Source: Candidatus Latescibacterota bacterium (GTDB taxonomy: Bacteria > Latescibacterota > UBA2968 > UBA8231). Taken from it: 64,000 nt of DNA. Each line of letters starts with the position of its first letter. Position 1 is the stretch's first letter. The notes below the pieces were generated by a model. It was not told the DNA's origin and did no database searches. It saw only the letters and a program-made list of their open reading frames with translations. The position numbers and the translations under genes were made by a program. Shown piece after piece: positions 1-13,932 of this stretch. The stretch is taken from positions 3,040,001 through 3,104,000 of the forward strand of contig CBDETK010000013.1 in the NCBI GenBank assembly GCA_965242865.1, given 5' to 3'.

Positions 1-372
1 CTACCGTAAGTTGCGGTTGGTTTCGGGTTGCCAAGCGCGGATGATCGCGGCCTCCAGCTCGCGAGTCTCCTCTTCACTCTCGGTGAATGTTACTGAGAAT
101 TTTACTAGATCGGGGAACATGCGGAGTTGGCGTCGGAGTTTGGGATTGGTCTCGTTTGCCAAGTGCTCCAGCAAGCGGCGGCGGACGCAAGTTGCGGACA
201 TGCCGATGTAGAGCCGTTCGGGGGCACTTTCTCCGGGCAGCCACAGGGCGTATAGGCCGCAACAGTCCTTTGGTAGCGTTTGCACCTCCTCTCGGTTGAA
301 TGGGCGCAAGTTGTTTTCTAGCTGATACTTCTTGGCGAACAAATTATTGGAACGGCAGATCACCTTGTGCAT
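1..372 (-). CDS. GIY-YIG nuclease family protein
   Basis: GLYALW...LYIGMS...VRRRLLEH...LEAAII..PETN matches the GIY-YIG motif order (GIY, YIG, R, E, N); overlaps the 3' end of the methyltransferase; start uncertain. Confidence 0.75.
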   Translation of the reverse strand: MHKVICRSNNLFAKKYQLENNLRPFNREEVQTLPKDCCGLYALWLPGESAPERLYIGMSATCVRRRLLEHLANETNPKLRRQLRMFPDLVKFSVTFTESEEETRELEAAIIRAWQPETNRNLR

Positions 373-3169
373 CTTCTTTCATCCTTGAGAGGGCAGAAAG
401 GACGTTTTGCCACTCGGTGACGAGGTTGTTGAAGACGACCGCGTTTTGTGCGTCGCCTTTGCGGTCGTAGTGGTTGTAGAGAATGCGCGCCAAGCGCTCG
501 ACGGATTCGACGTTGCCATTCATTTCCCGCGCCACCACACCCGCACCCTCGATCCCTCGGCCTTCCTCGTGGTTTAGGTGGTACGCCATGCGGAAGCATC
601 CTTCCCACGCGGTTCCATTGCCGAGGGTCAGTGGGCGGCTGTCGCCAAATTCATCGAGCGGCAACAGCTTTACCCGGCCCCCTTCGGCCGTGAGTAGGCC
701 GTCCAAATTTTGCAGTTTGCTGATGGCTACGTTTTTGGCGCGGGATAGCGTCTCGGCCTCGCCGTACTGGCCTTCTTCGTAATCGTGCTGTTTGAGCCAG
801 TCGAGGCAGAAGCGGCTCTCTGCATCCAAATCGCCTTCCTGTCGCTCGTCGTAATCGGCGATGGCTCGGTTAATGGCCGCTAGGGCCTCGCGCACTGGCA
901 CTGGCTCGCCGCTGATGGTCTCGACCCGTGCGTAGCGCGAGTAGATTTGCATTCCGGGGCCGATGGCGGCTTGTGCTAGATCGGTTGGGGCAATGTGTCT
1001 TTGTTGCGTGAGTTGGTCGAGGGCTTCGGGCAGTTCTTTCGCCAGCGCGTCAAAGAATTGGCGGCGCGTGGCAATGGGCGCATCCTTAGAGCGTGGACGG
1101 CAGACGAGGACGACGGACGAGGCGAGGGCGTTGGTATTCATCGCATTGGATCGGTTTCCCATCTCAGTTCGCATGGGCCAAGTGCCGATCATTTCAAAAC
1201 CAGCCGAGACAATGGCGGATAGCATGGTTTCCCAGCCGGTGGAGGCTCTGCCTGCGCGTTCCTCCTCCTGCTGTTTGTAGGCGTAGAAAATGGACGATGG
1301 GAACTCAGCCGAGCAGCGTTCCCGTATCAACCGCAACGTCTTACTTAGCTGTTGCTCAAATTGTTGGCTGTAATTTTCAAAACGGAATCGATTGGCAACC
1401 ATTTCTTCGCTTTTGGGGGTCAGTATGCCAGCAAACATATCGGGGTAGGCGTTGCGGAGTAGCGGGCGCAGCCAGACATAGAAAAAGTCGGATGAATCGG
1501 CGTAGTGGATGTTATCGTAGTAGGGGGGATCGGTGACGATGACGGGACCGTTTTGCGCGTGAATGGTGGTAGATGCGTCGGCTTGGTGTGCTTCTCCGTC
1601 GTTCGCATCGGCGGGAAGGCGGTCGACGGCTTTAGCTATCCACTCGATTTGGCCCGTCCAGTTCTGCGTTGAAGTCGAGAAGATATTCGCTTCGGCAAAA
1701 TCCCAAACCATCCCAATCCCTTGACGCGAGAAAACCCCTTCAACCTTTTCCCCGGAATTGTGCCAGTGGGTGAAACTGCAACCACTGTTTGCAGTCCTAC
1801 CAAGGGCAAGCGCAAGATACGTGCAGATCGCATCGGCGTATTCTCCTTCCACCTCATCCTGTTTGATTTGATTACGAACCTCTCCCAGCAAGTCGCTGAA
1901 TGTAGTCAGCGCGGTTAGCTGGCGTTCCGTGAAAAGCTGGTGCCACTGTGTAAACCCATAAATTTGTACACTAATGCTTCTTGCTTGTTCAGGCAGGCTG
2001 CCACTAGGCCGCCAAGCAGGGGTAGCTTTCTGTGCAACCTTGATATGCTCGTCCACCGGCGAAAGAAACAGTCGCTTGCGGCTCCCCTCGGCGACAATCG
2101 CCGTCATAACCTCCCCTATGTTGCCCGCTCGCCCTTGCTCGCGCACATAAGGCAACTTCACCACACTGCCGCAGCCGAGACAGGTCGCGCCGTTGCGGTT
2201 CACCGTGCCGCTTTCGGGAACGTCGGCGTTGTGGTTCTGTACCACAAAGGCGATGCTGTTTCTCTCGCGATCAATGACGGGCCTAGTCCAATGTTCGTTG
2301 CCTTTCTTCTTCGACAATTGAAACGTGGCCATCAGCGGCATGGCAATGCGACACGCCGGATTCGGACAGGGCACAGTCCGCGCCCACAGCCACGCGATTA
2401 CAGTAGCATTCGTTCCGTCGGACAATCTCACCTGCGGATACAAATGCCCGATCCGCTTGAACGCCTCCTCGCGCATCCAGCGACCATAGTAACGGATGTC
2501 GTCGGCCAACCCCGCCGCACCGCGCCACGGAACGCGCCGCTTCCTGCCCTTGCCCACGGTCATACCCATCCGATCCGCATCCGGGTTGACCGGAGGTTGG
2601 CCGCTGAATTTCGGCGGCAGTTCGATCAACGCCTTGTTAATGAGCACCGCCACCGGGTTGAGATCAGAGGCGACCGCTCGCAGCCCAAGTCGTTGCGCTT
2701 CGAGCGGTATGGAGCCGCCGCCCGCAAAGGGGTCGTAGATCGGACGGACCTTGTCGTTGAGATAGCGCAGCACTTCCGCCGGATCGGTGGGCGCAGTTTC
2801 GCCGCGGGTACGCGCCACCGAGCGAGCAATTTCGTATCGCGCTTCCGCCAAGCGTTCCCTACCTGCAGTCTTACTTTCGTCGGTGCTCTCCCACTTAACA
2901 AGCTCCCGGATGATGCCATGCAGCCGCTCGCGCTCGGCCCGTTGGGCCTCCTCCGTAGGAAACTCGTCAGAACAATCGGCCGGGTCGTCCACCATGCTAG
3001 CAAAAATGACGGCGCGACAAGCCGCCAGCGGACGCCGCGCCCACCACAAATGCAGCGTCGAAGGATGGCCGTGCCGAATGGATTTCTCGCGGGCGGACTC
3101 GTGGTTGATGACGTCAAGAGGCAAGTCCACCTCAATGAGCTTGCGACGATATGGGGTTTGAGCGGTCAT
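344..3169 (-). CDS. DUF1156-domain adenine-specific DNA methyltransferase with Zn ribbon
   Basis: HLWWARRPLAACRA (DUF1156), YDPFAGGGSIPLEA (SAM binding), TDPPYYDNI (catalytic DPPY), CPNPAC...CLGC. Confidence 0.9.
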   Translation of the reverse strand: MTAQTPYRRKLIEVDLPLDVINHESAREKSIRHGHPSTLHLWWARRPLAACRAVIFASMVDDPADCSDEFPTEEAQRAERERLHGIIRELVKWESTDESKTAGRERLAEARYEIARSVARTRGETAPTDPAEVLRYLNDKVRPIYDPFAGGGSIPLEAQRLGLRAVASDLNPVAVLINKALIELPPKFSGQPPVNPDADRMGMTVGKGRKRRVPWRGAAGLADDIRYYGRWMREEAFKRIGHLYPQVRLSDGTNATVIAWLWARTVPCPNPACRIAMPLMATFQLSKKKGNEHWTRPVIDRERNSIAFVVQNHNADVPESGTVNRNGATCLGCGSVVKLPYVREQGRAGNIGEVMTAIVAEGSRKRLFLSPVDEHIKVAQKATPAWRPSGSLPEQARSISVQIYGFTQWHQLFTERQLTALTTFSDLLGEVRNQIKQDEVEGEYADAICTYLALALGRTANSGCSFTHWHNSGEKVEGVFSRQGIGMVWDFAEANIFSTSTQNWTGQIEWIAKAVDRLPADANDGEAHQADASTTIHAQNGPVIVTDPPYYDNIHYADSSDFFYVWLRPLLRNAYPDMFAGILTPKSEEMVANRFRFENYSQQFEQQLSKTLRLIRERCSAEFPSSIFYAYKQQEEERAGRASTGWETMLSAIVSAGFEMIGTWPMRTEMGNRSNAMNTNALASSVVLVCRPRSKDAPIATRRQFFDALAKELPEALDQLTQQRHIAPTDLAQAAIGPGMQIYSRYARVETISGEPVPVREALAAINRAIADYDERQEGDLDAESRFCLDWLKQHDYEEGQYGEAETLSRAKNVAISKLQNLDGLLTAEGGRVKLLPLDEFGDSRPLTLGNGTAWEGCFRMAYHLNHEEGRGIEGAGVVAREMNGNVESVERLARILYNHYDRKGDAQNAVVFNNLVTEWQNVLSALSRMKEDAQGDLPFQ

Positions 3170-3200
3170 ATCAGCTTATTTTGCCGCTGGTCTAACTGAA

Positions 3201-4172
3201 TTAGTTCGGTTGGTTAGGGCTACCAAGATCCATCTGAGCCGTTTGTGGAGGGGGGGAAGGGACATGCTGCTTGATAAACGCCCGACCAGTATAGTTTTCA
3301 ACGATCTTTATCGCAGCAGTCCCGGTAAACGTATGAGTAGCTGCATGAAATACCGATAGACTGAGGTCTTGTAACATATTATCATCTTCAAGCGCAGTCA
3401 CCTTCAGTTGGTTCTCCAAGAGATCTTTTCGTGATATGTGCCGGCCATGGCTCTTGAAATTCTTGTGGTTGGCAAGCCATTTAGAGATTGACGATGCCTG
3501 CTTCGAGCGGTCGGGACAGTTTTTGAACATGTAGGTTTCCAGCCATGTCTTTACGAGTTCCTTAGACAACTTCAACGCTTCTTCACACTGCACCAAGAGA
3601 TCGGGACCGTATTGGTTCAACATTGGCAGCCAAGCCGATAGTTTTGCCGGATCAGAGCATTCTCGCTGGGCTCTGTCGAACTGATCTAAAACGGCCTGTG
3701 CTGGGACGAATCGTGCTCCTAGAGGAGTAGTGAGCGGAATCTGCGGGTCGGTTGGTCCAAGAAAAGAATGCTTGCCCAGCACAATCTCATCAGCGGCACA
3801 TGAAATCATAGTCGCCGCCGACATTGCAAGGTGAGGAACGATTACTCGGATATGAGAGAATCGAGACCTTAGATAAGAGACTATAGCCTCGGCCGCTTCA
3901 GGAGAGCCCCCAGGGCTATGTAGAATCAGGTCGAGGGCACCGCTTAGTCCCCACGTTACTTCCATGAGGGCGTGAACATCCTCGTCGCTGATCGAAATAG
4001 AAGCCGCCGGCACTTCCTTCTGAATCCATCCCGAGGCATACAGGATAACATTACGTCCAGTGTGCCGGTGGAGTTGCAGGAGATATTTTCTTCGAATGCC
4101 GTCAAAATCGGGGGCGGCATCCTGTCGGCTGGGCGCAGCAAGTTCAGCTAGAATTTCACTCCATATTGGCAT
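3201..4172 (-). CDS. SDH_sah / ClpP-fold serine protease
   Basis: LILHSPGG, AMSAATMI, LGPTDPQ and SHGRHI motifs; RBS AAGGAAGG upstream. Confidence 0.85.
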   Translation of the reverse strand: MPIWSEILAELAAPSRQDAAPDFDGIRRKYLLQLHRHTGRNVILYASGWIQKEVPAASISISDEDVHALMEVTWGLSGALDLILHSPGGSPEAAEAIVSYLRSRFSHIRVIVPHLAMSAATMISCAADEIVLGKHSFLGPTDPQIPLTTPLGARFVPAQAVLDQFDRAQRECSDPAKLSAWLPMLNQYGPDLLVQCEEALKLSKELVKTWLETYMFKNCPDRSKQASSISKWLANHKNFKSHGRHISRKDLLENQLKVTALEDDNMLQDLSLSVFHAATHTFTGTAAIKIVENYTGRAFIKQHVPSPPPQTAQMDLGSPNQPN

Positions 4173-4196
4173 GGATAGGCCCTTCCTTATACAGGC

Positions 4197-4406
4197 TTAC
4201 CGGGCGTTAGCATGGTCCGTCGTTATTACAACTTCCGGGTGTTTGGTTGCAAGACGGTACGGTTCGAGGCCCTTATCCGCCTTCTGGTAATTTTGGTAAA
4301 CCTGCATAACTTCCCGGACACCTGGACGGGCTAGTGCCTCCTTTAGCATAGCAGCATGTTCTTGCTCACGGTTGGAACCTTGAGGCTTTGCTGTGTGTTT
4401 AGCCAT
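4197..4406 (-). CDS. 69-aa hypothetical protein immediately upstream of the protease
   Basis: Strong RBS AAAGGAGA; ends 24 bp before the protease start. Confidence 0.7.
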   Translation of the reverse strand: MAKHTAKPQGSNREQEHAAMLKEALARPGVREVMQVYQNYQKADKGLEPYRLATKHPEVVITTDHANAR

Positions 4407-4451
4407 AGAGAATCTCCTTTTGAGTTGGGTCAGTATTCGCTATCTCGCTTC

Positions 4452-4571
4452 CTAAACGTTGGGCTCTGCCTTGTTTAGGTTCATTTCTTTAGCCCAGCGC
4501 AGATCGTGGCCGACTCCGCGCAGACGAGAGACGATGTGTCCCGATATATTTTCGTCGGCCAGTATCCTCAT
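4452..4571 (-). pseudogene. Truncated DUF5615 PIN-like toxin (N-terminal 39 aa)
   Basis: Manual translation MRILADENISGHIVSRLRGVGHDLRWAKEM...; its ATG overlaps the TGA of an upstream broken ORF (ATGA). Confidence 0.65.
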
Positions 4572-4686
4572 GGTCTTTCGCCGTTTTGCCAGATCATCTT
4601 GTATCGGCCACCTATTGCGGCGTCGAGTTCCTCCGAACTGATCTTACCCGCTCTATATATTGGGCCATGTCCATAGTTTCCTCTGT

Positions 4687-5271
4687 TTACTTGTACAATA
4701 CAGCACAGCATTTTTTGTATTTTTCCCCACTGCCGCAAATACACGGATCATTTCTGCCGATTTTCTCTAAGTCTTGTCTGTATTCTGCAAAGCCTTTTCC
4801 ACCATGTGAGTATTCGCCACATGGTGGTATTTTTCTGTATTTATCAAAATATGCTTGCCAAACAAAGTAGGGATAAACTTTATTAAGGACGAATTTTCGT
4901 AGCGTTATATTGGTATTGAAATCTATGCCCAAGCAACAGCTATTATTACTTGGGTAAATATGTAAATCTATGATTGGTTTTCCAATTTCCGCTGCTAGCT
5001 TTTCTATTCTTCCTCCAGTTTCAAATACTTTTGGCCATTCGCTTTGGGTATCATTGAGAAGGATTTTAATTTCGTAACAATCGCGTAGGCAGTCGCTACC
5101 AGATGAACAAGGGATGATTTCCCAAATATCCTCTCCTTTCTTTTTTGACTGTTTTTGATAGCGAGCACTAAAATTCAATTCACCCCTGATACAGTTCTCC
5201 TTCTCATCGTAATAAAGATTTGGGAAATATTTTTGAATCTCTGTGAATTCTTCTAGAGTATATTCAATCAT
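4687..5271 (-). CDS. Prokaryotic E2/UBC-like protein with C-terminal SEC-C motif (CBASS ancillary)
   Basis: WPKVFETGG...[12 protein letters not shown] (E2-like Cys motif) and [18 protein letters not shown]; likely start MIEY at 5271 overlaps the CD-NTase stop. Confidence 0.75.
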
Positions 5272-6217
5272 AACTATAAGGTTTGGTCGCACCAACTGCG
5301 GGTATCGAAGAAGTCGATTCATTCAGTTCACCAAAGTCGTCGCCGAATAGCTTTCGCCACTTATTAACACTCTCGTTGTGATCTTTTTCCTCAAATGCCT
5401 CATTGATCCTTGTGTTATAGGAATCAAACTTGTCTCGGAAATTAGCATATTTCTTTTGATCCCAATGCCTATTGAAATCCTCTTCGGGCAACACAGGATT
5501 TTTCACAGTTGGCATTGATTTATTGTCTCTCAGGAAGTCATTTATCCGATTGGAAAGAGTCTTCAATGTCGTCGGCAAATCGGAAAAGTCGCTAGAACCC
5601 TTATCGAGGGTACTAATTTGATTCCCCAAAAGGGTCGTCAGCAGTATAGATTTCACAGAAAAATTGTCTTTATGGTCACGTAAAAACTTGATAAGACTAG
5701 TTGTTTTTCTAAAATTATTATCCCCAACAACTTTGTTTTTATTTCTTAGCCAAGTTGTATATCCGTCGCCATCTGTCTTCTCATGTCGTTCTTCGTCTTT
5801 ATTACAAATGTAGCAAAATTCTCCATACTCAATACAAGGAACAACATCTAAGTGAAAATCACCAGCATAGTCAACAGTCACACATCGTGAATTTATCCTA
5901 ACTATGTCCTTATAGGTATTATTCTCTTTGAACACGTCATGTACTTTTTTTACATAATCGGTGAATGTATTCGGATCAAAGTCGTCGTCTTTGACAAAGA
6001 CTAGTATATCAGCATCGAACTCATCATTTTCTCGGACTGGCTTGATTATGGTCTGATGGGCATAAGAACCTTGTTGGCTATATTTTTTATAACCACTGAG
6101 TTTGGCCTTGAGCAGATCAGTGATTGTTTTTACTCGCCTATCTAGTGTACTTTCCCTAGACTGGTTCAGGTTGACATGATCGGCTAAGAAGTCGTTGAAA
6201 TACTGTTTGTGTTTCAT
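5264..6217 (-). CDS. SMODS-type cGAS/DncV-like nucleotidyltransferase (CBASS CD-NTase)
   Basis: [12 protein letters not shown]...[43 protein letters not shown]. Confidence 0.88.
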
Positions 6218-7143
6218 TTTTTGGCCTCCAAAGCTAGGAAATTTGAGATTTTTGTATTATCTCGGGTGAATTCGGATTTTGCTAACTCTATTAATGTAGG
6301 GATACATCGATAATCGTCAAGTTCACAGTAATCGATAGTAGGATTGACCCTAAAAATCATCTTTTGATTAATCAAGGACAAAACCTTCTGAGGGTATTCA
6401 GTCTGGCATGACATTAAAGAATTTATCAGTTTTGATTTTTTCCATCCATTTAGAAATCCCCATCTTCTAGCAGCCTGATAGACTTGTCTTGCCTGTCCAG
6501 CTCCCAAAGACAGAACCCTGATGCTATCTGGATTTACGCAAAATTTTCCTATTGCATCAGTATAACCTACTAGCGAAGGATTGTTCGCCCATATCCCCCC
6601 ATCGCAAACCAAAGTACCTTCTATATCTACCGGATCAAAATAGATCGGTGCTGAACAAGAAGCTAAGACGGCCTTATACAAAGGCACTTCTCCATCTCGT
6701 ACATAATCTTCTTTCAGTTGTCTTTTTAAGTAAGATGACTTAAAAAGATGGAGCTCTCCTATACTTATATTTGTAGCATTGATAATAAGAGGCTTTTCTA
6801 TTTCTCCTAATTTAATATCTCCCAATTTTTTGTTGAGAAACATAGAGAGAGATTTGGAATCATATTTAGATCTGAGAAGCCCAAAGAAATTAAATCTTTT
6901 TTGAAAAATTTCTGAAGCATTTTTTTGATAGTCATCTACGAGTTGAGACAAATCATATTTTACTGCGATAGCCGCAGCTACGATACTTCCAGTACTAGTA
7001 CCCACAATGAGATCGAAGACCTCATGTATATTTAACCTAGCCTCCATAAGTGACAACATTTTTGCGGCAAAGACCCCACGTACTCCACCGCCATCAATGC
7101 TTAAAACCCTAAACACCTTTTGAGGCAGGTTTTGATCGTCCAT
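6214..7143 (-). CDS. Patatin-like phospholipase, CBASS CapV-like effector
   Basis: DGGGVRG, GTSTG, DGGIWANNP; ATGA overlap with the CD-NTase. Confidence 0.88.
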   Translation of the reverse strand: MDDQNLPQKVFRVLSIDGGGVRGVFAAKMLSLMEARLNIHEVFDLIVGTSTGSIVAAAIAVKYDLSQLVDDYQKNASEIFQKRFNFFGLLRSKYDSKSLSMFLNKKLGDIKLGEIEKPLIINATNISIGELHLFKSSYLKRQLKEDYVRDGEVPLYKAVLASCSAPIYFDPVDIEGTLVCDGGIWANNPSLVGYTDAIGKFCVNPDSIRVLSLGAGQARQVYQAARRWGFLNGWKKSKLINSLMSCQTEYPQKVLSLINQKMIFRVNPTIDYCELDDYRCIPTLIELAKSEFTRDNTKISNFLALEAKK

Positions 7144-7154
7144 AGCTTACCTCT

Positions 7155-10100
7155 CTAGCTGTCTGTGCCGGAAGAGGTCAGGTCAATGCCAAGCTGTCCA
7201 CTGTTCTCCCGCACGGCCCGCGCCGTGCTCTCGGAGAAGCCATCGGCCTTGTCCGCCGCGATGGTAATGGTAACTGTTACCGCACCACCGCCATCGCGTA
7301 GGGTGCGGATAATCTCCTCGCGCAACTGGTTGACGTCGTCCAACGATACGTCGTTTGCGGTTGTCTTGCTGGCGACGATGCGCGTAGGGCCGTGCGGTGC
7401 AGGGAGCGGCGTCCCCGAATCGACGATTGTAGTAGGTTCAGCGGGGCCTGTGTCGTCGGTCGAGGATTCCAAGTCTTTTGGTGTCTCCTCACCTTCCGCG
7501 ACTACCAACTCCGCCATCTCGGGATTGACCAGCAACGTCGCGCTGCGCTCGCCCGCATTAGACGACGAGCTACTGATCGGCTCGCGGAAGCGCATCCCCT
7601 CGTACTGCTCCCCGTCGTAGGACTCGGCGTAGCCGAAAGCCCCGTCGGGCACCCCTTGTTCGATACAACGTTGCAGGACCGCTCTATTTCGCAGGCGGTG
7701 CATGTACACATAGCGGGTCATCATGTCCCACAAGCCATCTATGCTAATGTGGTCTTGGTGGTTGGGATTGTTCCATACGTACTGCTTCAACAGGGTGGCC
7801 AACGCCGAAGGGCTTATGTGTTCTACGAGGGCCTCGTCCCCGATGAACTTGGCGAAAGCATTGTCAATAATCTCGCCGTCCGTCGCACCAACCTGAGAGA
7901 CGGCCAAGCGATATTCAGCCTTCTGCGGATCGTCTTGAACCGGGGCGATGGCCCAGCGGTACGCCCCAATTAGAGCAGCCCGCACCTCGGATTCCGCTGT
8001 CCTGAGACTGCTCTGAGCCTGTTTGAGCCGGTCGCCCGAGAGGTTTTCAATGCGACGGTCGCCGTTGACGATGGAATGCCAAGCGAGGAACGTCTTAACC
8101 CGGTTGTTCAGATCGCGAATCTCGTCTTTTTTCGCGGCCAGAAAGAGCAGGGTATTCCTGCGGACCCGGAGGGCGTCGCCACAGTGTTGTAGCATTTGCT
8201 GCACCGCTGGCTCGGCGTGGTCTTTCTCGCTGGCGCGGCTCGGCAGCGACCTATCAGGGAGCAAAAGCACGAGGCGCACCGCATCGGCGTCGGGCACGGC
8301 CTTTGAATCGGCTGGGCAGACGATGACGTCTGAGCGGCGTCCAACCGCCTCTTGCAACTGCGCGACGATGTGGTCGTTAATGTCTCGGCCGCTCAGGGCC
8401 GCGGCGCGATCGGTGGCGACCTTGTTGAGGTTTTCCTCGGCGTGGAAGTAGTACCGCCCCTCGCTACTGTAAAGGTAGTAGAGATCGCTGCTGATTTGGC
8501 CGAGGGCATCGTTGTACACCGAGACTCCGTGTTTGGGCTGTACTACGCCGAGGCGAATCTGCCGAGCATCAATGCCTTTGACGGCCCCGCTGCCGGAACT
8601 GCCGAGGAAAATTGTGCGGGCTAGGCGTCGAGCGGCTCCGCCGACCTCGCCAAATCGCTGGGACGCCCGGTCTATGTTGTCGGTTCTGAAGTTGTTGCCA
8701 TCAACCTCGGACAGGACTGGCCCCCATTGGCTACCCAGCAGCCTGACAAACTCGTTGGCCAAGGCCGTATCGCTCAAGGTCAGATTCGCCGGCATGATCA
8801 GCGGGGAAGCATCGTTGTCTAAATACAGGCGGCTGACGCAGTTGGCCATCATCCGCAGGACGCCGCGCGTGCGCTGGAACTGGGTAATAGACGACCAATC
8901 CAAATAGAGGCGGTCGAAAATCTCTGGGTGAATGGGGTAGCAGGCTCGCAGCCGCTCGAGGTAGTGATGCTCGCTGACCTCGCGGGGGTACTCGTTGCGC
9001 GCCCGACTGTACATAGCGGCAAAGGCTTCGCAAGTGCGATCCCTAGCGGCCTCGTCCATGTCGTTTCCAAACAGTCTGCGGCGCACCACTTCAAACGCTT
9101 CGTTGGTCTCAAGCGGTTCCCACACGGCCTCAATGCGCCCCAAAAGGTGCTCTAGCCGGTTGAGGGCCTCCATACCGGCCTCGCTTCCCGCCTCAACGCT
9201 GCTTTCGGGCAGGGTTACGACGAGGGCCGCGTTGTTGTTCCTGCGGACGGCTTGGGTGAGGGCTTGGACGAAGGTTAAGATGTTGTCCTGTGCGTTCCCG
9301 GCATTGCGCGCGTATGCCACCAACTCGTCGATGAGGATGACGCACGGCCCGACGTGGGCGAATAGCTGGTCGAGCTGGGCACCGCCGGGCGCGGTCCCCT
9401 GTCGCGCCGCTTGGCCGACTAAATCGTAGGCGTCTTGACCGCCGAGTTGGTACGCCATCGCGCCCCACAGGGTGTTGAGCGGATCGCCGTTGGGGGTTTG
9501 GGCGGCATCGGTGGGCGAAAGGTACGTGCCGTCGAGCACGGCGACGCGGGCCTGAACGCCAAGAGTTGGGGCCAGCCCGGCCTCTTCTATAATGCCGCGG
9601 ATCTCGTTGTAGGGCTGCTCGGATTGTCCCTTGCCGCTCGGATTGGTCAGGGCGTCGGTGCTGTTTACTAGATGATAGAGCGCGATGAGGCTGTGCGTCT
9701 TGCCGCCGCCAAAGCCCGTTTTGGTCTGGATAACCGGATCGCCCCCGTTGCCACTGAGCCGCTGCAAGGTGTTCACTAACAGGGTGCGGATGCCCGGGGT
9801 GATGTACGTGTGGTTGAAGAAGCTGACTGGATTGCCGTATTGAGTGGCGTCGGCGCGCCCGTCGTGGACTTGTTGGAGATCGGCCGCAAACTCGGCCTCT
9901 TGGAAGGTGCCTAGGGCCACATCGGGATTGGGACGAATGACCGTCCGCCAAGGAGCGAGATCGCCGGTCGGACGGGATGCTGGCGGTGCGGGTTGGCGCT
10001 GGGTGGAGGTCTCGCGTTGGCTGGCCGGGCTGTCGAGTTGGTTCCGAATCGTTTCTACGGCCTGCTTCTGCTTGGGTGCATTGATTTTGCCGATCACATC

Positions 10101-10497
10101 GGCGATGAGAAACAGGTGGGTTCGGACGAACTCGGCCTCTAGGTCTTGGGGGCCGGGATGAGCCGCCTTGTCGCGGGCTTCCTTTATCAGCCATAGCGCG
10201 TTCTGGACCCCCCGCTCGTCGCCAAAGGGCTGTTGGAAGAGGCCGCTCCACTTTCTGCTGATGAGGTGGGGAAAGTCGCCAATGTCTATGGAGGCCGCTG
10301 CATCGCGCCCGTTCTTGCTCAGGTTGAGGCTGAACTGCTCGGCCTGTCTGTGATTTAGCCCCTCGCGGATCACCTCTTCAACCTGCTGGCCCCGCACCTT
10401 CTTTAGCGAGCGGACAATAAACGGGCGCATGGCGTCGCGGTAGATGTCTAGCCCCTTGTTGAGCGCGTCCCTGTTGGGGCGGTCTATCGTCGTATTC

Positions 10498-10508
<11 letters not shown>
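7155..10508 (-). CDS. Swt1-like HEPN domain + DUF499 AAA+ ATPase
   Basis: N-terminal Swt1-like region with RDKAAH (R-x4-H); EFAADL, Walker A GFGGGKTH, Walker [21 protein letters not shown]; non-ATG start overlapping the sufB end. Confidence 0.88.
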
Positions 10509-11961
<1,453 letters not shown>

Positions 11962-12041
11962 GTTGGCTCCTTGTATCTAGATGCGGTCTCAAGAACTTAG
12001 AAATCTGTACAAAAAAGTCAAGTTTCGGGGCGAGGTGGGTA

Positions 12042-12941
12042 CTAGCCCATTTTTTTGCGCTGCGCCAAGTACCGAGATAAGGCCACGTCAAAGGGGGTCG
12101 CCGTGTCGAGCAGGGCGTAGTCAATGCCGGCCTCGGCGCACCCGAGCCGATAGGTCTGGATTAGATCGTCCATCAGGGCGCGGTACTCGTGCTGGATGTG
12201 CCAAGGTTGGGTGGTGAGGGTTTGGGCCGGGTCTTCGAGGTCGTAGAAGCGGGTCTGATCGCGGAAGGCGAGGTCGCGCTCGCGGGGGTCGAGCAAGTGG
12301 AAGACGATCACTTCGTGCCGCAGGTGGCGGAAGTGGCGCAACCCTTCGAGGACTTGGTCGGGCGCGTCGAGTAGGTCGGAGAGCACGATGACGAGGCCGC
12401 GGCGGCGAATGCGCTCGGCGAGGTCGTGGAAGGCCGGGGCCATGGTCGTCTCGCTGTGCGGACTCGCTTGGTCAATGGCCTTGAGGAGGACTTGCAGGTG
12501 GCTTTGCACCGAGCGCGGCGGCACGTACACCTCGGTTTGGTGGTGGTAGAGCAACAGGCCGACCGCATCGCGTTGCTTGAGCATGAGATAGGCCAACGCG
12601 CCGGCCAAAGAGGCTGCGTAGCGAAACTTGCTCAGGGGCGCACCGGCCGCAAAGTCCATGGAGCCGGAGACGTCGAGCAGCAGGTAGGCTTTGAGATTGG
12701 TCTCCTCCTCGTACTGTTTGACGTACAGGCGGTCGGACTTGGCATACGCCTTCCAATCAAGGTCGCGCAGCGGGTCGCCCGGCAGGTACGGACGGTGCTC
12801 GGAGAATTCGACCGAGAAGCCGTGGTACGGGCTGCGGTGTAGGCCGGTGATAAAGCCTTCCACCACGAGGCGCGCAATCAGGTCGAGGCGCGAGAGGCGC
12901 GAGATGGTTTCCGGGTGGAGGTAGGAGGCCGCTTCGCTCAC
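12042..12941 (-). CDS. DUF58 (vWA-like) protein
   Basis: GLHRSPYHGFSVEFSEHRPYLPGD, DWKAYAK, LLDVSGSM; downstream of MoxR. Confidence 0.92.
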   Translation of the reverse strand: MSEAASYLHPETISRLSRLDLIARLVVEGFITGLHRSPYHGFSVEFSEHRPYLPGDPLRDLDWKAYAKSDRLYVKQYEEETNLKAYLLLDVSGSMDFAAGAPLSKFRYAASLAGALAYLMLKQRDAVGLLLYHHQTEVYVPPRSVQSHLQVLLKAIDQASPHSETTMAPAFHDLAERIRRRGLVIVLSDLLDAPDQVLEGLRHFRHLRHEVIVFHLLDPRERDLAFRDQTRFYDLEDPAQTLTTQPWHIQHEYRALMDDLIQTYRLGCAEAGIDYALLDTATPFDVALSRYLAQRKKMG

Positions 12942-12942
12942 G

Positions 12943-13932
<990 letters not shown>

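Follow-up and report, generated by a model that had tools for sequence, protein, structure and literature searches.

A mobile cassette of a small protein and a ClpP-fold serine protease, nested in an Hma locus of a Latescibacterota bacterium, as a candidate anti-phage module

We analyzed a stretch of 64,000 nucleotides (nt) from Candidatus Latescibacterota bacterium (contig CBDETK010000013.1, forward-strand positions 3,040,001-3,104,000; hereafter, the window), in which a gene for a 69-residue protein lies directly upstream of a gene for a ClpP-fold serine protease, between genes of the defense system Hma. On balance, we favor the reading that these two genes are an autonomous, horizontally moving cassette carried by Hma as cargo, and that their most likely role is defense against phages or other mobile elements. 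An initial annotation of the window had proposed a two-gene protease module linked to defense, and the pair is a reasonable defense candidate: it sits inside Hma here and in 4 of 24 related loci found in other genomes. Two further suggestions of that annotation, a tie to the adjacent cyclic oligonucleotide-based anti-phage signaling system (CBASS) and the absence of any named system of this composition, fare less well and are taken up below.

Pairing of the two genes

Both genes are encoded on the minus strand and are separated by 24 nt (4173-4196), and each is preceded by a purine-rich ribosome-binding site (Table 1). The coordinates, the gap and the strong ribosome-binding site of the small open reading frame (ORF) are as the initial annotation had given them; the strand was not stated there. 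We regard the small ORF as a coding sequence because differences from 15 homologs, whose rows are mutually related, concentrate at the third codon position (245, 222 and 544 at positions 1, 2 and 3, respectively), and because homologous protein clusters exist (43 at E ≤ 0.01). Judged by these comparisons, it is a genuine gene, and a chance ORF is ruled out.

When only the protease was used as a query against 185,579 species genomes, 24 loci from many phyla were returned, with proteases 50%-83% identical to that of the window. A homolog of the small protein, recognized with a profile of its alignment (A1), lies directly upstream on the same strand in 22 of them, so that the proposed conservation of the small ORF next to the protease holds. 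The two loci missed by the profile, L024 and L025, are the most distant of the 24, and both still contain a small upstream ORF; the tail of the one in L025, VITTSNHVG, resembles the query tail, while that in L024 is less clearly similar. Small upstream ORFs also precede the proteases of three further loci at 38%-47% identity (L031-L033) and the copy in a Shewanella Mu-like phage. In a Klebsiella lambdoid prophage region with a 57% identical protease, an annotated upstream ORF of 67 residues shares the core LLDAALSNPGVADVM.

Viral sequences extend this picture. Relatives are encoded in 281 of 297 candidate stretches from IMG/VR viral contigs, and among the best 80 stretches, 74 provided usable upstream sequence, 66 of which contain a small ORF that has the orientation of the protease and stops immediately before it. 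In small ORFs upstream of viral proteases, the tails are about twice as rich in Ser and Thr as those of control small ORFs (fraction 0.239 versus 0.122; Mann-Whitney p 1e-8, a statistic that ignores kinship), and a hydrophobic-[ST][ST] tail motif was found in 12 of 36 as compared with 10 of 88 controls, kinship again being ignored. In Gordonia phage BeeGee (L034), an unannotated ORF of 58 residues (3825-4001, plus strand) lies between genes 30 and 31, and its stop shares one base with the start of gene 31, which encodes the protease homolog; this ORF is probably the small partner, missed by phage annotation.

When neighbors were surveyed across 104 loci representing 62 protease lineages, the small upstream ORF was the only widely recurring neighbor family. 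The next most frequent families, a Fic/SoFic gene and an integrase, were each present in 4 lineages, and no third conserved gene recurred. These comparisons indicate that the two genes are a conserved unit that travels together.

Complex prediction for the small protein and the protease gave a score of 0.41 (0.41, 0.40 and 0.47 in individual runs), the best of three controls scoring 0.00. Of 157 solved complexes and 215 mismatched pairs, 116 and 2, respectively, attain the mark applied to such scores; of those attaining it, 18 of the 157 solved complexes and both mismatches score no higher than 0.60. Contacts were at least 70% in agreement between runs, with a pLDDT value (the model's prediction of the local distance difference test) of 55-60 for the partner. 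Physical binding of the small protein to the protease is plausible on this prediction, if weakly so.

The protease and its small partner

The protease matches Pfam family PF01972 (SDH_protease, formerly SDH_sah) with an E-value of 5.9e-18 and 65.3 bits, above the gathering cut-off of 31.3, in a segment confined to residues 79-146 (profile positions 93-160 of 286). This score, the Ser-Asp-His order of its presumed catalytic residues and its ClpP/crotonase fold place it in the family. Because it scores well below the equivalog cut-off of NCBIfam NF047768 Clp_like_SDH (73.7 versus 250 bits), we consider it a member of a divergent subfamily. This subfamily is better described by phrog_11747, a phage family of unknown function that matches the protease over its full length (E 2.7e-88, 296.9 bits).

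Invariant residues were identified in an alignment of 51 proteases (A2), including two paralogs from the same genome at 29%-31% identity. In addition to the positions listed in Table 1, they comprise Ser136, Gly139-Pro140-x-Asp142, Trp210-Leu211 and Glu262. We infer that Ser118, Asp142 and His242 form the catalytic triad. A Gly-Gly turn at the oxyanion hole, for which Gly88-Gly89 is the candidate here, is typical of ClpP, SppA and other enzymes of the ClpP-crotonase fold. The initial annotation had described a soluble protease with intact motifs, and the PF01972 match, the AMSAA motif containing Ser118 and the lack of a hydrophobic N-terminus agree with that description. By sequence, both proteins of the pair lack a signal peptide and any membrane segment, and the protease is predicted to be cytoplasmic.

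An AlphaFold2 model of the protease (pLDDT 90.7) adopts a ClpP fold, with a helical C-terminal part following the protease core. Its structural matches include chains of ClpP (Z 12-13.5), SppA (Z 11.8) and the protease 1510-N (Z 10.7), and the nearest viral models, from BFVD, are annotated as giant-virus 'serine dehydrogenase proteinase' (E 1e-9 to 1e-8, template modeling score 0.5-0.63). The resemblance to ClpP covers 164-179 aligned residues and places the nucleophilic Ser in the equivalent strand-helix turn, but identity is only 11%-17%, and the score against Pfam CLP_protease falls short of the cut-off (17.6 versus 20.2 bits). Moreover, the catalytic order of ClpP is Ser-His-Asp and that of the window protease Ser-Asp-His, and the latter has the extra helical C-terminal part and lacks an adjacent AAA+ unfoldase, no AAA+ partner being encoded within the cassette. 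SppA and the NfeD-type protease 1510-N are likewise self-compartmentalizing serine proteases of the ClpP fold. They use a Ser-Lys dyad and are membrane associated, whereas the window protease has an invariant His and Asp and no membrane segment; its score against NCBIfam SppA_dom is 18 bits, with a cut-off of 155.

A relationship to phage prohead proteases is also apparent, in matches to NCBIfam Clp_rel_HeadMat (E 2e-10) and to PHROG head-maturation families (E 1e-8 to 1e-4). We rejected identity as a phage head maturation protease: the score against NF045542 is 40.9 bits, as compared with a cut-off of 120, and there are no portal or capsid genes beside the examined phage copies or in the window.

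The small protein contains the core MLKEALARPGVREVMQVYQNYQKAD and ends in a Ser/Thr-rich tail (..VVITTDHANAR). In alignment A1, L21, A24, L25, M34 and V36 are invariant, and both a core (REQEHAAMLKEALARPGVREVMQVY) and a tail (V-T-T-T-D-H-A-N) are conserved. Its AlphaFold2 model (pLDDT 77.9) has helices at residues 12-25, 30-46 and 48-54; its N-terminus is disordered and its tail (55-69) lacks structure. It has no match in Pfam, PADLOC, NCBIfam or PHROGs, and no usable match in the ESM Atlas. A search for fused forms among longer proteins returned a single one, of 130 residues, and showed no fusion to the protease, a result that is weak evidence. The small partner changes more quickly than the protease, with identities of 49% versus 76% in L005 and 30% versus 61% in L020, yet keeps its helical core and Ser/Thr-rich tail.

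Cassette limits and genomic settings

To delimit the cassette, the window was aligned with eleven other copies (two of which, L029 and L030, repeat L004 and L019). DNA similarity among them starts abruptly 15-35 nt 5' of the small-ORF ATG and, wherever the flanking context differs, stops at the protease stop codon. The cassette therefore consists of the two ORFs and their ribosome-binding sites and brings no conserved promoter with it. It shares the orientation of hmaC, the CBASS genes and hmaB, and ends 31 nt before hmaB. A scan of positions 3000-5000 revealed no minus-strand promoter-like site, but counts were at or below shuffled expectation and the scan is uninformative; the sole minus-strand terminator-like site in the same interval falls within hmaB. 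No Rfam family reached threshold in positions 1-12000 of the window, and no flanking repeats bracket either the cassette or the CBASS genes. The guanine-cytosine (GC) content falls into three blocks, with values of about 0.60 (0.58-0.63) for the Hma genes, about 0.51 (0.47-0.53) for the pair and 0.34-0.40 for the CBASS genes. This is in line with the initial annotation, which had placed the pair between CBASS and a methylase and had noted its lower GC content relative to host genes.

The cassette is patchily distributed. Within the genus, 24 further genomes lacked a close copy (38% identity for the best match), and among 40 relatives, close copies are restricted to two genomes from another family. 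A distant DNA search of E. coli genomes with the Klebsiella copy of the pair gave no match. Other copies occupy accessory sites of temperate phages, namely those of the Mu-like phage, a Mu-like prophage (L022) and the lambdoid region. From this comparison of sequences, we conclude that the cassette is horizontally mobile.

We examined the surroundings of the 24 loci by scanning as many as three ORFs per side, each of 90 residues or more (126 of 132 ORFs, six outer ORFs having been left out). Four loci are inside Hma. L004 and L019 show the order of the window, HmaC ... pair - HmaB; in L007 the order is HmaA - pair - 82-residue ORF - HmaB, and in L015 it is HmaC - pair - ABC ATPase - two ORFs - DUF1156 methylase. 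Relative to the window, HmaB, HmaC and the protease of L004 are 75%, 68% and 83% identical, which suggests that the HmaC-pair-HmaB arrangement is of shared ancestry and that the slot next to HmaC is variable. In L007, on the other hand, the protease is 73% identical and HmaB only 47%, suggesting a separate embedding of the pair. Neither protein of the pair matches any family among the PADLOC-DB v2.0.0 models, including those for Hma, HEC, PDC and CBASS (0 families at E ≤ 0.01). Since the flanking genes match HmaB and HmaC at E < 1e-240, we regard the pair as cargo of Hma and not as a component of it.

Several of the remaining loci contain other defense genes. The pair lies between a type IIG/DrmMI-like methylase and an AbiL-like pair plus SNF2 helicase in L020, adjoins a type IIG enzyme in L005, follows a type I restriction subunit next to SoFic in L025, precedes a mad6/PglW-like kinase in L011 and adjoins PD-Lambda-2 in L012. 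In L022, it follows GemA and Mor of the Mu-like prophage, at a site identical to that in the Shewanella phage. Transposase or integrase remnants are found near L010, L012 and L027. A Fic/SoFic-like gene adjoins the cassette in L006, L025 and five viral loci (7 loci in 4 lineages), mostly on the opposite strand.

Table 1. Coordinates of the pair, its presumed functional residues and the neighboring defense genes, as positions in the window
Feature	Position	Strand	Basis or remark
Small partner gene, 69 residues	4197-4406	minus	ORF call and homologs
Ribosome-binding site AAGGAG, 7 nt 5' of small-ORF ATG	4414-4419	minus	read from sequence
ClpP-fold SDH-type serine protease, 323 residues	3201-4172	minus	ORF call, PF01972, phrog_11747
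Ribosome-binding site AAGGAAGGG, within the 24-nt gap, 7 nt 5' of protease ATG	4180-4188	minus	read from sequence
Gly88-Gly89 codons (HSPGG), putative oxyanion-hole turn	3906-3911	minus	invariant in A2; role presumed
Ser118 codon (AMSAA), presumed nucleophile	3819-3821	minus	invariant in A2
Asp142 codon (GPTDPQ), presumed catalytic Asp	3747-3749	minus	invariant in A2; role presumed from the family's Ser-Asp-His order
His242 codon (KSHGRH), presumed catalytic His	3447-3449	minus	invariant in A2; role presumed
HmaB DNA adenine methylase (DUF1156)	344-3169	minus	PADLOC PDLC00660 E 5.8e-303; Pfam DUF1156
CBASS E2-like protein with C-terminal SEC-C motif	4687-5322	minus	PADLOC E2 6e-26
CBASS cyclase	5264-6217	minus	PADLOC Cyclase 3.9e-121
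CBASS patatin effector	6214-7143	minus	PADLOC Effector 5.3e-79
HmaC ATPase (DUF499)	7155-10508	minus	PADLOC PDLC00662 E 2.4e-249; Pfam

Within the window, the three-gene CBASS (4687-7143) sits between hmaC and the protease pair as separate cargo. It has neither an E1 nor a JAB gene, and its E2 and cyclase ORFs overlap by 59 nt. The corresponding slot of L004 is occupied by a gene for a 301-residue protein (6621-7526, plus strand; GC 0.42) without a Pfam or PADLOC match, which is another piece of Hma cargo. In HmaC of the window, a HEPN_Swt1 domain at the N-terminus (residues 18-125, Pfam E 1.1e-6) precedes the DUF499 ATPase. On the far side of hmaC is a housekeeping-looking ORF (10498-11961), and hmaB is followed by a gene for a 123-residue GIY-YIG protein (1-372, minus strand). 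The HmaA helicase was not found within 15 kb beyond hmaB, and the best HmaA-like match of the genome is about 235 kb away. The 15 kb beyond the window start (L028) contain further defense-like genes, among them a PD-T4-4_A-like ABC ATPase, a mad3-like ORF and an SspA/DndA-like cysteine desulfurase.

The same genome has a second Hma-like locus (L117, G000:C13:5464001-5484000), with an SDH protease paralog of 297 residues and 35% identity (9281-10174, minus strand). This paralog directly follows hmaB, which is split into two ORFs (12028-13200 and 10289-12166), and is itself followed by a 75-residue ORF, a DUF433 protein, several ABC-ATPase cassettes (NsnB/HEC-03B-like and HEC-01A-like) and HmaC (1855-4599). 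In the subfamily to which the paralog belongs, a small ORF is 3' of the protease, not 5'.

Function, alternatives and relation to known systems

Embedding of unrelated genes in Hma is common: 62.7% of 1,485 Hma systems were reported to contain embedded genes, 7 of 9 tested embedded candidates protected against phage, and only 3.1% of embedded genes were associated with mobility (Payne et al., bioRxiv 10.1101/2024.01.29.577857). The pair resembles the HEC-01 to HEC-09 and PDC candidates of that study in that it is nested among hma genes and also occurs outside Hma, so that a defensive role is suggested by 'guilt by embedding'; it differs from them in having no PADLOC v2.0.0 model. The main text of the preprint contains neither 'ClpP' nor 'peptidase' and uses 'protease' once. 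In the library searched, literature searches for SDH_sah-type or ClpP-like serine proteases in anti-phage defense returned nothing relevant.

If the pair is a defense cassette, we propose that the small protein would bind the protease and either keep it latent or set its specificity, its tail serving as latch or pseudo-substrate or being the first substrate cut. Phage infection would remove or consume this latch, and the freed protease might then cut phage proteins or host proteins, halting phage production. Head or scaffold proteins are plausible targets because the protease is akin to prohead proteases. As the initial annotation had suggested, the small protein would then be an inhibitor, activator or substrate of the protease, a set of roles that we likewise infer. 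Two structural relatives provide precedents: an SppA structure is titled as holding its own C-termini within its active sites, and a 1510-N structure is titled as specific for a stomatin homolog, so that either a tail-in-groove or a dedicated-substrate relation can be envisaged. A fully specified version of this proposal would have the core of the small protein dock on a chaperone-independent Ser-Asp-His protease, its hydrophobic-Ser/Thr-Ser/Thr tail fill the active-site groove, and infection strip the latch, whereupon the protease would destroy host proteins or those of the phage head or scaffold. The cassette would also be a promoterless plug-in with a preference for systems based on methylation (type I, type IIG, MADS-like and, at least twice, Hma), co-transcribed with them as a second layer when restriction fails. 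We think it unlikely that this version is correct as a whole.

Several observations weigh against a defensive two-component cassette, or are at best neutral. Adjacency of a small ORF is weak evidence in phage DNA because control ORFs often have one too: on phage contigs, a small upstream ORF precedes 60 of 73 proteases but also 108 of 190 control ORFs. The complex-prediction score is a weak pass and came with no interface, so that this check, proposed with the initial annotation, lends the pairing some support and leaves the mode of contact aside; the placement of the tail in the groove is conjectural. A PADLOC neighbor at E ≤ 1e-5 is present in 15 of the 24 loci, very strong in 11 of them, a count that comes with no background rate around random genes. 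The remaining 9 loci have no such neighbor, and some loci are flanked by housekeeping genes. The pair's own lack of PADLOC matches counts against it as well, and the abundance of the family in viruses fits a function benefiting phages equally well. In two related loci, L023 (8001-8980) and L027 (8001-8785), the protease is encoded in two overlapping ORFs instead of one; the split stems either from a frameshift or from misassembly, and these copies are possibly decaying.

That last point about viruses leads to an alternative in which the pair benefits mobile elements, whether as a protease for phage or satellite counter-defense or for competition between elements, or as a toxin-antitoxin addiction module, and is present in Hma by hitch-hiking. 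The commonness of the family in viral contigs, its match to phrog_11747, the copies at temperate-phage accessory sites and the transposase and integrase fragments near three loci all suit this explanation. So does the layout, since a small upstream gene, a larger downstream enzyme, a short gap, tight linkage and mobility are shared with type II toxin-antitoxin pairs. Prophage-borne accessory genes are often defense genes, and phage context therefore does not discriminate between the two. The repeated, co-directional nesting in host defense operons, by contrast, is the pattern of defense cargo reported in the text of Payne et al. (bioRxiv 10.1101/2024.01.29.577857). These embeddings include at least two independent ones in Hma, one in a type IIG/DISARM-like locus and that of the paralog in the second Hma locus, and in their light we think an element-serving role unlikely, while still giving it some weight.

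A functional accessory of Hma-type or other methylation-based systems, processing or regulating their proteins, would explain why the protease abuts hmaB in the window, L004 and L019 and why a distant SDH paralog directly follows the second HmaB-like gene of the genome. This is improbable in our estimation. No Hma genes were present among the ORFs scanned in 20 of the 24 genome loci and in the viral loci, the pair is better conserved than its Hma flanks in L007, and its position varies, from between HmaA and HmaB in L007 to a place with three genes intervening before HmaB in L015. Very little speaks for the idea that the small ORF encodes a peptide precursor and that the protease processes it to a mature signal or toxin, in the manner of a ribosomally synthesized and post-translationally modified peptide or a pro-toxin. 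A conserved C-terminal tail beside a dedicated protease, and the stomatin specificity named in the title of the 1510-N structure, would suit such a role, but there is no modification enzyme, exporter, immunity gene or other third conserved gene, and neither protein has a secretion signal or membrane segment by sequence. Even more doubtful is membership in the adjacent CBASS, which the initial annotation had raised and which might have the pair replace a Cap3-type deconjugating protease that an E2-only system lacks. The E2-like gene immediately precedes the pair in the same orientation, and this CBASS does lack a JAB protease. Against this, the GC contents of the two differ (0.51 for the pair versus 0.37-0.39), cassette homology ends before the CBASS genes, L004 and L019 have the Hma-pair arrangement without CBASS, a cyclase is nearby only in L013 and on the opposite strand there, and the pair has no PADLOC CBASS match. 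The comparative data have already largely refuted this membership.

The defense reading also bears on the novelty of the pair. A system named FS_HP_SDH_sah, consisting of a hypothetical protein and an SDH_sah protein, carried by phage-inducible chromosomal islands and active against phage, is said to originate from work by Fillol-Salom and colleagues published in Cell in 2022. The resemblance, as far as the name implies, lies in a small hypothetical protein with an adjacent PF01972 protease and in carriage by mobile elements, and the difference in the setting, the window copy being chromosomal and nested in the Hma operon of an environmental bacterium. The label is included in DefenseFinder v2.0.0 (PMC13532340), and in the library searched it appears in the main text of a single paper. 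The pair very probably belongs to this already catalogued kind, and the statement in the initial annotation that no named system has such a pair is, for that reason, probably wrong. The likeness is one of architecture alone and homology to the reference genes is unproven, which tempers the support that the catalogue entry gives to a defensive role. Because the small partner diverges fast, the catalogue profile may miss divergent copies.

What our analysis adds is the exact limits of the cassette, a set of invariant protease residues, a tail conserved in the otherwise fast-changing partner and the recurrent nesting in Hma and other methylation-based systems. The locus is a clear case of serial cargo loading into Hma, with the pair and an unrelated CBASS both placed between hmaC and hmaB, and two different SDH proteases are found in two Hma-like loci of one genome. 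The family is abundant, with 4714 protein clusters at E ≤ 1e-5 and 281 viral contig stretches, yet has no PADLOC v2 model. For work at the bench, the comparative data offer handles in Ser118, Asp142 and His242, in a fast-evolving partner with a conserved tail and in a minimal cassette boundary. If the defense reading holds, the pair would be among the few anti-phage modules with a ClpP-fold protease effector that works without an unfoldase; and if the latch mechanism is true, it would represent a zymogen-like proteolytic switch new to anti-phage immunity.

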